Source: a virus
DNA length: 36,193 bases
Strand: one strand, 5' to 3'
Virus genome (UHGV): UHGV-0315046
Shown here piece by piece: positions 19,491 through 22,390 of this stretch. Positions within the stretch are counted from its first letter, which is position 1; every line of letters begins with the position of its first letter. Under the pieces are notes generated by a model. The model did no database searches and had not been told where the DNA came from. It saw only the letters and a program-made list of their open reading frames with translations. Position numbers and translations under genes: made by a program.

Positions 19491-19956
19491 GGTTGAATAG
19501 CTCCTTGATACGAGAGCGCCGCTTATCGCGATCTCCCTTATCAGGTGTCACGTCTTCAACTTGCGACTGCTCTTTGAGGCCCAAATCACGGGCGATGATG
19601 TTAGCGTTGAGAAGGTCAGCGGCTGCGCCAGAGAATTTCTGGTCGTAGATGATGTCTTCCGCTCGTGATGTGACGTCAGAAAAACCTTCCATTGACCGGA
19701 AGGTTCCCCATGTTTGCCTGGTGATATCAAGGAAGGTACACAATCCTGAAATAGTCATGGCTCGCATCTTAGGGACATTAGCCTTAATTATTTCTCCCTG
19801 ATATGAAAATACCTTACCCTCCCATAGCGGGTTATCATCAGCCCACTCGAAGTATTCACAACAAGCAGCCCACAGCGCCTCAGGCGATTCGAATTTAGGA
19901 TTTCGCCCATGACTACTGCGGGCCTCCCAAAATCGGTTGCCCTTTGGTGCTGCCAT
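19468..19956 (-). CDS. Terminase small subunit (P22 gp3-like)
   Basis: 162 aa; N-terminal [38 protein letters not shown] and C-terminal [23 protein letters not shown] match P22 gp3 from memory. Confidence 0.9.
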
Positions 19957-20035
19957 ATTGATTATTTCCCTTCTGCTTGCTTATCCCATTCATCGCGGAA
20001 TTTGGATGGGTTGTCGAAACCTTGAGTTGCCATGT

Positions 20036-20278
20036 TTATGCTCCGGTAGTGAACAGGTCTAACGCTTCCTTCGATTTACGCACCGCTTCGATAGTGCGGG
20101 TCGTGATATCTGAATTAGCGCCGCCTGACTGGAAGTGAATTTTGAATAGCTCAAGCTTCAGCTCGTCAGTGCCAATGAACTGAAATGCTTCTTCTGCGGC
20201 TGCGTTCTGGTTCATGACCAGCTTGTAAATCTCTAACTGGAATTTCTGTTCTTCAGTCATGGGAATAATCTCTGCCAT
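20036..20278 (-). CDS. Hypothetical protein upstream of terS
   Basis: 80-aa ORF, acidic and helical; no recognised motif. Confidence 0.45.
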   Translation of the reverse strand: MAEIIPMTEEQKFQLEIYKLVMNQNAAAEEAFQFIGTDELKLELFKIHFQSGGANSDITTRTIEAVRKSKEALDLFTTGA

Positions 20279-20638
20279 TGTTGGCTCCGTTTATCCGTTA
20301 AAAGGGATATCAGTTAAGTTATCCCGTGTAGGGTATAATCCATTGTCGAGACCACTCATTGAATGGTCTCTGCAATAACCGATGTCTTTCCATCAGTCCG
20401 CCACCACAAAGAATCTTTTTTGCCATCAGGCAGGAGGTTCATCTTTCAGTGGCTGCCAGTGTTATTTCCCCACTTACTGGCTTGGGTTGTTTCGTGTTAC
20501 TGCCGCAACTGGTGGTGCACAGATTTAGTTAAATCTGTTCTCGCCTGAACTATCTTTTACATACCCGGATTGTGGGGATGTAAATCACGGTTTCATTATC
20601 AAGCCCACCCGTAGATGGGCTTTGTAATGCCTACATGG

Positions 20639-21160
20639 TTAAATGATTTGCCAGTCTTCTGCTAGAACATCAGTCTGACTAGCCAGCCACGGTACTAATT
20701 TATCGTCCGCTGTTTTCATGGCGATATACGGAAGTTGTTTCGGAGATCGTTTCGATTCTCCATGCGTACCTTCAGGCAACTCAAAGACGCGACTGCAAAA
20801 GCAAGGCGTACTGCCAGTATGAACAGCCTCAGTGTACGGTTTAACGTATGCCAGCCACATACCCTTACCATTCCAGCCAGCACGAGCAACTTTATTCCCC
20901 AACTTGAGCGCTTCAATGGCAAGGCCGAAACTTAGCCCAGATACCGGACGATAAGCCTTTTCGAATACTTCTTTTGGACTCCAGCTAACGTAGCCATCAA
21001 AGCGATCGGTGTTAGGTTTTCCGCCATCCAGATATTCAACCAGATAGCCTTCGTCCTCGCCGTTTTCTCCGGCAGGAAGCTGCCAGCCACGAAAATCGTT
21101 ATATGCCTGTCTCGTCATCGGAAAGGCGTTAATCAGTTTTACGCCAATATGCTGGGTCAT
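20639..21160 (-). CDS. Two-domain hypothetical protein with DUF2829-like (Tad2-like) C-terminal half
   Basis: 173 aa; C-terminal half (FGLAIEALKLGNKVARAGWNGKGMWLAYVKP...LPYIAMKTADDKLVPWLASQTD) fits the DUF2829 pattern as I recall it; not verified. Confidence 0.5.
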   Translation of the reverse strand: MTQHIGVKLINAFPMTRQAYNDFRGWQLPAGENGEDEGYLVEYLDGGKPNTDRFDGYVSWSPKEVFEKAYRPVSGLSFGLAIEALKLGNKVARAGWNGKGMWLAYVKPYTEAVHTGSTPCFCSRVFELPEGTHGESKRSPKQLPYIAMKTADDKLVPWLASQTDVLAEDWQII

Positions 21161-21238
21161 AAAATTACCTATAGAGTTGGGAATAAAAAGCCCCGCATCG
21201 CGAGGCTCATTAAATGGACTTTGTGATTTGCAAAAAAA

Positions 21239-21715
21239 TTATTTCAGGCATTGCGTCCTGATGTATTCCTGAAGCGTTCTCAGTGCTGTTTGGTCGCGGA
21301 TAATTCCGTCCCGGACACCGAGAACGTTTCGTCCAGCAACTGGAGAGAGTTCGACGGTGGCATCATTGCCCATGCCGGAGGCGCTGGAGGCGCTGGAGGC
21401 TTCGGCTGAGGATGGCACAGGGCATTTTCCTTTGACGAGCACCCTGCCACCATTATCAAGCTTGCGCAGAAGAGCATCATTTTCAGCTTTCGCATCAGCT
21501 AATTCCTTCGTGTATTTAGCATCGAGTGCATCAGCATCACGCTGACGCTGCTGCATGTCAGCGATGGTGGCAGTCGCCTGCTTCAGCTCACTGACTTTTT
21601 TATCACGCTGTTCTTTGTAGGCGATGGCGTTATCACGGTAATGATTAACAGCCCATGACAGGCAGACGATGATGCAGATAACCAGAGCGGAAATAATCGC
21701 GGTGACTCTGCTCAT
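21239..21715 (-). CDS. Rz: Rz i-spanin
   Basis: Start refined to [30 protein letters not shown] (lambda Rz-like N-terminal TM and periplasmic start); C-terminal half diverged; contains the embedded Rz1 frame. Confidence 0.85.
21280..21495 (-). CDS. Rz1: Rz1 o-spanin lipoprotein, embedded in Rz in the +1 frame
   Basis: Signal peptide with lipobox (LIMVAGC) followed by a Pro-rich segment [14 protein letters not shown], as in lambda Rz1. Confidence 0.7.
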
Positions 21716-22215
21716 TGCTGCCCCCACAAACAGACTTCACGCTCAATCTCACGGCGAGTCATCAGCCCTTTCCATTGCTTACCGCCAGCGTATGTCCAGC
21801 GACGTAGCTGGTCACATGCGCCATTGATATCGCCCTGGTTGATTTTGCGAAGAAGCGTCGATGTTCTGAAATTGCCTGCGCCCACGTTATAGACGAACGA
21901 ATAAAGAGCGCCGCGCGTTGTTTCCGGTATATCGACTTTGATGTACGGGTTAATTTGTCTGGCTACCGTGGCAAGGTCTTTATTCAGGAGGGCTTTGCAT
22001 TCTGCTTCGGTATACGTTTTACCGGGAATGATGTCTTTTCCTGTATGCCCGTGACATACAGTCCATACGCCAACGATATCTTTGTATGGTATGTAGCTGA
22101 CACCTTCCAGACCATCGTTACCACTTGGCCCAGTGATTAACACAGATGCTATAGCAATAGCCCCGCCACTTATCGCCGCTATTACGCTATTTCGTAGTGC
22201 CGGTGACATTGCCAT
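21712..22215 (-). CDS. SAR endolysin (T4-lysozyme-like muramidase with N-terminal signal-anchor-release domain)
   Basis: N-terminal weakly hydrophobic Gly/Ala-rich helix ([15 protein letters not shown]) followed by an E...C/D...T catalytic spacing typical of phage 21/P1-type lysozymes. Confidence 0.8.
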
Positions 22216-22390
22216 TCAATCTGTCCTCGCGCTCTTTGCGCTTGTAGTACCAGTTGATGCCAAATGTGCCGACAGTACAAAGAATACCAATGATGACAGC
22301 CCAGTCATTCAGGGAGAGAATGCCACCCATCGCAGTCAGTCCTCCGAAGCTGTAACTGAACCATTCTCTGATTTTGTCCATACGGTACAT
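22187..22390 (-). CDS. Class II holin (pinholin-like) with dual-start motif
   Basis: 67 aa, two predicted TM helices, charged C-terminus; N-terminal M-Y-R-M gives two possible starts; overlaps the endolysin start. Confidence 0.75.

Follow-up and report, generated by a model that had tools for sequence, protein, structure and literature searches.

The UHGV virus genome UHGV-0315046, a stretch of 36,193 nucleotides that is called the window below and to which all coordinates refer, encodes on its minus strand a 173-residue protein whose C-terminal half is a genuine, canonical member of the Tad2 family. This half is preceded by a small domain without a family name. From its sequence, the protein most likely sequesters glycocyclic ADP-ribose (gcADPR) and thereby defeats type I Thoeris, a reading that is given a probability of about 0.78. 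An earlier note on this DNA had described the open reading frame (ORF) as a two-domain protein lying after the lysis cassette, with a DUF2829 (Tad2-like) second half, and had proposed an anti-defence role, which the gene may indeed have, judging from the family that it matches. The ORF list confirms the gene at 20639-21160, with a holin, an endolysin and the Rz/Rz1 pair upstream of it in the operon direction. The gene and its parts are listed here.

20639..21160, minus strand: whole ORF, N-terminal domain then Tad2-like domain; 173 amino acids plus stop, ATG start, from the ORF list
20942..21160, minus strand: N-terminal domain, residues 1-73, without a family name; predicted beta-beta-alpha-beta-beta-alpha-beta, a small barrel-like fold
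20642..20932, minus strand: Tad2-like domain, residues 77-173; from Pfam PF11195, PDB sequence matches to ModTad2, SPO1 Tad2 and HgmTad2, and Foldseek
20867..20878, minus strand: G95-W96-N97-G98 loop, first half of the predicted gcADPR pocket; aligned to HgmTad2 W21-N22-G23 and SPO1 Tad2 W25-N26
20669..20689, minus strand: W158-L159-A160-S161-Q162-T163-D164, second half of the predicted gcADPR pocket; identical to HgmTad2 W87-L88-A89-S90-Q91-T92-D93 and fitting SPO1 W73..S76..T78-D79
20729..20842, minus strand: hypervariable insertion, residues 107-144, between the strands equivalent to HgmTad2 beta2 and beta5

The Tad2-like domain and its predicted gcADPR pocket

A hidden Markov model (HMM) search with DUF2829 was employed to classify the C-terminal half. 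Residues 77-173 match Pfam PF11195 'Tad2-like' (DUF2829) at an E-value of 2e-25 and with 89.5 bits, where the gathering score is 25, and the match spans positions 2-73 of the 73-position profile, so it stands far above chance. Solved Tad2 structures are matched by the single sequence at E about 1e-15, and a family-profile search of the PDB found seven distinct solved Tad2 chains at E 3.5e-24 to 8.9e-22, including HgmTad2/AcrIIA7 (8KBI, 3.5e-24), ModTad2 (9EIB, 1.2e-23) and SPO1 Tad2 (8SME, 8.9e-22). The full-length protein was modelled with AlphaFold2 as a single chain built on 65 relatives, with a mean predicted local distance difference test score (pLDDT) of 84.5. Searched with Foldseek, this model retrieved 24 solved Tad2 chains at probability 1.0, with template modelling (TM) scores of 0.64-0.86 relative to the target, and beyond the Tad2 chains no other match below E = 1. 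The Tad2 fold, an N-terminal helix followed by an antiparallel sheet with an insertion after beta2, is matched by the model. The DUF2829 assignment of the earlier note is thus borne out by both sequence and fold.

To understand which ligand the domain might bind, its residues were aligned with those of Tad2 proteins whose contacts are published. SPO1 Tad2 contacts gcADPR through W25, N26, W73, S76, T78 and D79, and HgmTad2 through W21, N22, G23, W87, L88, S90, T92 and D93; the HgmTad2 mutants W21A/N22A and S90A/T92A/D93A have lost gcADPR binding. Equivalents of all these contacts are present in the alignment as W96, N97, G98, W158, L159, S161, T163 and D164. Among the 65 relatives, G95, W96, N97, W158 and D164 are invariant, and conservation reaches at least 90% at G98, S161, Q162 and T163. 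The second pocket motif is WLASQTD, as in inhibitors of type I Thoeris, and not the WTPSVSD of ModTad2. The pocket motif of the ModTad2 type (type II Thoeris, histidine-conjugated ADP-ribose) was therefore not found, which is a weak test. Only about 1% of Tad2 homologues are predicted to be non-functional for gcADPR binding (Li et al.).

By analogy with other Tad2 proteins, the domain most likely forms a homotetramer, an assembly in which two gcADPR pockets lie at the inter-dimer interfaces. Its pocket residues suggest that it would bind, at the protomer interfaces, the 1''-3' and/or 1''-2' gcADPR that Thoeris TIR proteins produce; with the signal sequestered, the ThsA effector would never be activated and the phage would escape type I Thoeris. 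The gene lies in the late operon, after lysis and before the packaging and head genes, so that expression together with the structural proteins is probable. Several points weigh against this account. ModTad2, with a related pocket, fails to inhibit type I Thoeris, which makes specificity uncertain. The predicted TM score of the full-length model is 0.60, too low to fix the arrangement of the two domains. Gene order and one simple consensus scan are the only basis for the timing of expression, and searches of the literature found no binding or infection data on this protein or on any fusion of its N-terminal domain with Tad2.

A quite different function is implied by some phage records. In phages Louie and Huey, shorter alleles of the 173-residue ORF gene are labelled 'anti-CRISPR protein' by pharokka, and HgmTad2, the nearest relative with a solved structure, was originally described under the name AcrIIA7, which its PDB entries keep. 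E. coli and Salmonella carry type I CRISPR systems and are not known to carry type II-A, which counts against an AcrIIA7-like activity. Inhibition of Cas9 by HgmTad2 or other Tad2 homologues was not reproducible in vitro or in vivo (Li et al.), and Yirmiya et al. are of the same view. With these published negative data (Li et al.) the anti-CRISPR label is not supported, and such an activity is very improbable for the present ORF. Sequestration of gcADPR is retained as the preferred reading for the Tad2-like domain.

A second ligand has been described for some members of the family. In HgmTad2 and SptTad2, cyclic dinucleotides are bound by an insertion of 35-41 residues between beta2 and beta5 (Li et al.). 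The ORF insertion, at 38 residues, fits this range, and its sequence is unrelated to that of HgmTad2. Of the nine HgmTad2 residues that bind the cyclic dinucleotide cGG, only the proline is kept, and the others are changed (R31 to K107, D34 to T110, L36 to V113, K46 to F126, S47 to E127, F70 to L143, T71 to P144 and N85 to P157) in a loop whose alignment is unreliable. Contacts of the HgmTad2/SptTad2 type were thus not found, with the reservation that this loop holds 29 unrelated cassettes across the family, and cyclic-dinucleotide binding cannot be assumed for the ORF.

The insertion is hypervariable. Its mean pairwise identity among the 65 relatives is 0.13, against about 0.7 in the flanks, and these relatives carry 29 unalignable cassettes of 11-38 residues. 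The matches in E. coli genomes split into two pieces around the insertion, which is the same pattern at the DNA level, and the insertion is the least confident part of the AlphaFold2 model (pLDDT 63-75). This agrees with the wide variation published for the region, which was suggested to set a second ligand specificity (Li et al.). The ORF's own cassette has two cysteines (C120 and C122) in a TPCFC motif that is common to 13 relatives. In one 354-residue relative (P0150), a segment resembling an HNH/AP2 homing endonuclease interrupts Tad2 inside the variable loop and leaves the N-terminal domain and both Tad2 halves intact; it looks like a mobile insertion within a sponge gene.

The N-terminal domain and its fusion partners

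Residues 1-73, hereafter the N-domain, are mostly beta and reach a pLDDT of 94.9 when modelled alone. In the model they are a separate, confidently folded and independent domain, so that the two-domain architecture read from the sequence by the earlier note holds for both halves. The N-domain has no match in Pfam even at E up to 10, none in NCBIfam and no PDB sequence match. DUF1653 (PDB 3BE3), compared with it in both fold and sequence, may or may not be a relative.

Several known sponges were considered as its identity and set aside. Acb4 is rejected, with no Pfam match up to E 10, no hit to a local Acb4 HMM, no PDB sequence match and a secondary structure that differs; for comparison, genuine Acb4 genes (Sf6 gp66 and N4 gp48) score E 1e-35. 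Sequestin (PF21825) is an all-helical dimer, and the mostly beta N-domain matches neither its Pfam family nor any PDB sequence. TadIV-1 is a two-helix dimer with a disordered N-terminus and was likewise rejected. Lockin, compared by description, is reportedly missing from the complete genomes of INPHARED, against 137 deposited phage genomes with the N-domain, and is judged unlikely.

The domain is nevertheless very widespread. A profile search of 1.84 billion representative proteins gave 2,698 clusters (defined at 50% identity) at E up to 1e-3, of which 1,289 remain at E up to 1e-10. The N-domain occurs in at least 584 viral contigs and, by tblastn, in the 137 deposited phage genomes mentioned above, including that of the model phage N4. 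To identify its partners, the best 150 representatives were scanned against Pfam, with the following result.

Tad2: 57 of the best 150
Sequestin (PF21825): 38
Acb4 (PF13876): 10
Acb2/Tad1 hairpin (PF24729): 3
WDGH, AP2 and HNH: 1 each
No known partner domain: the remainder

A known sponge domain thus stands beside the N-domain in 108 of these 150 representatives. The N-domain is N-terminal in 123, C-terminal in 9, internal in 8 and apparently alone in 10, some of the last looking like truncated fusions; the reversed domain order is seen, for example, in P0182 and P0239. About 29 of 74 N-domain positions are at least 90% conserved regardless of the partner, a value inflated by its being computed on the best-scoring matches, and the conserved residues include K8, R17, Y20, N21, R24, W26, E32, E42, Y43, D45, N50, Y57, S59, W60 and S61.

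Other partners carry no sponge annotation (P0171, P0194, P0157, P0206, P0241, P0269, P0158 and P0245). They comprise one WDGH domain (PF25311) and several regions of 70-200 residues without a Pfam match, and may be candidate new anti-defence domains. One N-terminal partner of 157 residues also lacks a Pfam match and may bear a likeness to MazG-type pyrophosphatases.

One further partner came from the recent literature. RyR Tad, which is gp68 of Pectobacterium phage vB_PatP_CB1, sponges gcADPR through a ryanodine-receptor-like C-terminal domain (bioRxiv 10.64898/2026.06.04.730250, June 2026), and its N-domain was termed an 'unknown fold' (10.64898/2026.06.04.730250). The ORF N-domain aligns with residues 1-65 of gp68 in hhalign at a probability of 95.9% (E 6.5e-9, 37% identity over 60 columns) and in BLASTP at E 8e-6, and a structure search of BFVD with the N-domain found a Yersinia phage TG1 RyR protein at TM 0.77. 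The two N-domains are homologous. In the gp68 crystal, two protomers swap strand beta1 of the N-domain, and this domain has a part in dimerisation (10.64898/2026.06.04.730250). Thoeris is inhibited by the gp68 C-domain on its own, and the isolated N-domain has no activity against type I Thoeris (10.64898/2026.06.04.730250). By analogy, the N-domain of the ORF is probably a strand-swapped dimer that ties protomers together.

It is therefore conceivable that the N-domain is a structural accessory, a module for strand-swapped dimerisation or solubility, and that all anti-defence activity resides in the Tad2 domain. The beta1 swap and the sufficiency of the C-domain in RyR Tad both favour such a role. 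Moreover, all known sponges are homo-oligomers with pockets at their interfaces, so a generic oligomerisation module would suit every partner seen. On the other hand, canonical Tad2, Acb4 and Sequestin oligomerise without an N-domain, and it would be surprising for a mere scaffold to leave so many polar and charged residues of surface type invariant across partners of different symmetry (dimers, tetramers and hexamers). The gp68 N-domain is a divergent member of the family, without the RGW and DGGxxN motifs; it lacks R17, Y20/N21, R24-G25-W26 and D45-G46-G47..N50, so the inactivity seen with it may not extend to the main family. A purely accessory role is viewed as a tentative option.

The unusually conserved polar and aromatic residues suggest that the N-domain may also have a binding target of its own, a further signal molecule or a protein of the host. 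If that target is a different immune nucleotide, the ORF would be a two-pronged inhibitor, which would extend gcADPR sequestration by the Tad2 domain and not replace it. Published Acb4-Tad2, Acb4-Sequestin and Sequestin-Tad2 fusions block two signalling systems, and the reasoning that domains fused to sponges are sponges has already led to Sequestin. The count of 108 sponge fusions among the best 150 representatives, the addition of RyR Tad as a fifth sponge type that carries the N-domain, and the reversible order of the domains all point the same way. The residues that stay conserved whatever the partner, including K8, R17, Y20, R24, W26, Y43, D45, N50 and W60, combine basic, aromatic and hydrogen-bonding side chains, a mix that would be typical of nucleotide pockets. 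A second sponge activity is a real but still doubtful prospect on these grounds.

Binding to a host protein was also considered, the target being a TIR protein or effector, as for Tad3-Tad8, or RNA polymerase, as for the Tudor-like domains of CarD and Mfd. The scores behind this reading are weak, the small barrel being a very common fold and the sequence identities lying at 4-17%. The N-domain is also not tied to one defence system, as it is fused to sponges of both Thoeris and the cyclic oligonucleotide-based antiphage signalling system (CBASS). A host-protein target is accordingly regarded as rather unlikely.

The present evidence does not separate a structural strand-swapping module from a second binding module. 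It is put forward, with some hesitation, that the unnamed N-domain may be a new anti-defence module, a binder of an immune signal or of a host immune protein that has been combined with at least five sponge families, in which case the ORF and N4 gp49 would both be dual inhibitors.

The slot between Rz and the packaging genes

The window comes from a P22-like (Lederbergvirus) phage or prophage of E. coli, and the region 19900-21800 is 94-98% identical to Lederbergvirus phages that include vB_EcoP_Kapi1, IME10, HK620 and Sf6. On the minus strand the order is antiterminator Q, holin, endolysin, Rz/Rz1, the 173-residue ORF, a 360-bp gap, DUF2560, the terminase small and large subunits and portal. 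The features that flank the ORF are given below; the names of the four lysis genes are from annotated homologues in Kapi1, Louie and Sf6.

22187-22390, minus strand: holin
21712-22215, minus strand: endolysin
21239-21727, minus strand: Rz
21280-21495, minus strand: embedded Rz1 lipoprotein ORF
21188..21208, minus strand: terminator-like hairpin with T-run, between Rz and the ORF; from a consensus scan
20594..20629, minus strand: hairpin directly 3' of the ORF stop codon, without a T-run; inverted repeat I3, part of the minimum-free-energy fold
20279..20505, minus strand: conserved leader of about 227 nt, 5' of the DUF2560 gene; 94-98% identity in more than 120 viral contigs (IMG/VR)
20036..20278, minus strand: DUF2560 protein of 80 residues, the 3' neighbour, followed by the terminase small subunit; from Pfam PF10834 (E 1.1e-43), ORF order and homologous-phage annotation

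A consensus scan of the minus strand between the upstream hairpin and the ORF found no sigma-70-like site. With a terminator-like hairpin upstream and no promoter detected, the ORF is probably made from the Q-antiterminated late transcript. The hairpin at 21188-21208 lies within this presumed single late transcript, and read-through presumably relies on Q antitermination.

Over its full length the protein matches phrog_872 (E 1.6e-72), and more than 7,900 homologues were found, most of which span 100% of the query. A match is present in 45 of 5,426 complete E. coli genomes, in every case chromosomal and annotated 'DUF2829 domain-containing protein'; query coverage reaches at least 80% in only 4 of the 45.

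What lies between Rz and the packaging genes varies within Lederbergvirus. This slot was surveyed in 125 loci that have the downstream leader in common. In most of these the slot holds an ORF of about 200-255 residues, at which deposited genomes annotate Rha or KilA-N, and the fusion of the N-domain with Tad2 (156-173 residues) is present in 7. An Acb4-family gene lies inside the leader in 3 of the 125, as follows.

L003:547-927: Sf6 gp66
L004:382-762: Huey CDS0066
L005:1604-1984: phiKp_30_260

All three match PF13876 at E about 1e-35. Their insertion point is fixed at gap position 265/267, which corresponds to window position about 20380, and phage Huey has both the leader-inserted Acb4-family gene and the N-domain-Tad2 gene. 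Taken together, the Acb4 inserts and the presence of both genes in Huey mark the interval between Rz and terminase as a small slot for anti-signalling genes. The 80 closest viral loci retrieved with the N-domain make up another set, in which 77 are Tad2 fusions and 24 have a separate Acb4 gene within 3 kb. In the window as a whole, a local Acb4 HMM found no second sponge gene of this type.

The earlier note had described a noncoding gap of about 360 bp with two hairpins after the ORF. The gap between the ORF and the DUF2560 gene (20279-20638) is indeed 360 bp long and holds no ORF of at least 40 residues on the operon strand, only ORFs of 22-35 residues; the count of hairpins has to be revised, as four inverted repeats were found. 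Its predicted RNA fold is much more stable than that of shuffled sequence (z = -7.15), and a search of Rfam with the gap gave no match even at E up to 1.

The conserved leader occupies the part of the gap next to DUF2560 and was found in 200 deposited phage genomes. Its diversity is 0.027 per column, in loci that were picked via an exact 23-mer inside the leader. In about 13 of 89 unique sequences it precedes a gene resembling the terminase small subunit instead of DUF2560. The 76 unique leaders showed one-sided changes only and no compensatory pairs, with variation too low for power either way. The Sf6 record annotates 'boundary sequences' near this site, and the leader may be a conserved module-boundary or regulatory sequence.

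Significance and comparison with known systems

The Tad2 half adds one more member to a well-described family; it is ordinary and has already been auto-annotated. The N-domain, which is very widespread, unnamed, strongly conserved and repeatedly fused to immune-signal sponges, is the more interesting half and a worthwhile lead. That the domain recurs in fusions with sponges of five families (Tad2, Sequestin, Acb4, Acb2/Tad1-like and RyR Tad) and keeps its polar residues conserved makes a second binding activity worth testing. If the N-domain has its own target, it would reveal a new family of sponges or else a new means by which sponges are boosted. The domain would then also serve as a simple search handle, as some 30 partner domains without a known identity would become candidates for new anti-defence proteins. 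Kapi1 and N4 are culturable and share the same architecture, so the question of the N-domain is directly testable.

Among known systems, Kapi1_043 of phage vB_EcoP_Kapi1, annotated 'hypothetical protein', is in all essentials the ORF gene and occupies the same slot after Rz. Kapi1_043 and the RefSeq copies (E. coli G3/10, MP1 and others) are 97.7-98.9% identical to the ORF in nucleotide sequence, without substantive difference. The RefSeq copies already carry the automatic annotation 'DUF2829 domain-containing protein'.

HgmTad2 (AcrIIA7; PDB 8KBI-8KBM) and SPO1 Tad2 (8SME/8SMF/8SMG) share Pfam family and fold with the C-terminal half. The gcADPR motifs of HgmTad2, GWNG and WLASQTD, are identical to those of the ORF, and both proteins have a long insertion between core strands. 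The ORF differs from HgmTad2 and SPO1 Tad2 in about 75 extra N-terminal residues, which form the separate domain.

RyR Tad gp68 has the same layout as the ORF, with an N-domain of the same family followed by a gcADPR sponge domain. The sponge domain of gp68 is an all-helical ryanodine-receptor repeat, whereas that of the ORF is Tad2.

Phage N4 gp49 (EF056009.1 34003-34485) and Bp4 orf32 combine an N-domain with a Tad2-like domain as the ORF does, with 54% identity in the N-domain, and each adjoins an Acb4-family gene. The region of N4 gp49 has been described as an 'anti-signalling hot spot' of N4-like phages (10.64898/2026.06.04.730250). Both differ from the ORF in that they belong to Schitoviridae, lie beside the virion RNA polymerase and have a shorter insertion. 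In the GenBank record of N4 (L007:1109-1962; EF056009.1 33632-34485), it is gp48 that has PF13876, a family named after 'N4 Gp49', and gp49 is the fusion of the N-domain with the Tad2-like domain. The gene numbering of N4 differs between sources, so that the Acb4 protein of N4 could be misidentified.

Fusions between sponge domains are frequent, and Sequestin was discovered by asking Pfam for families that occur in fusions with Tad2 and Acb4 (Tal et al., bioRxiv 10.1101/2025.07.12.664507). The N-domain has no Pfam model and would thus be invisible to such a screen. The published Acb4-Tad2, Sequestin-Tad2 and Acb4-Sequestin fusions (Tal et al. 2025; Ab09 gp59) resemble the ORF in joining a sponge domain and a second small domain in one polypeptide, and these fusion sponges block two systems (Tal et al. 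2025). The ORF differs from them in its partner domain, which is neither Acb4 (PF13876) nor Sequestin (PF21825).
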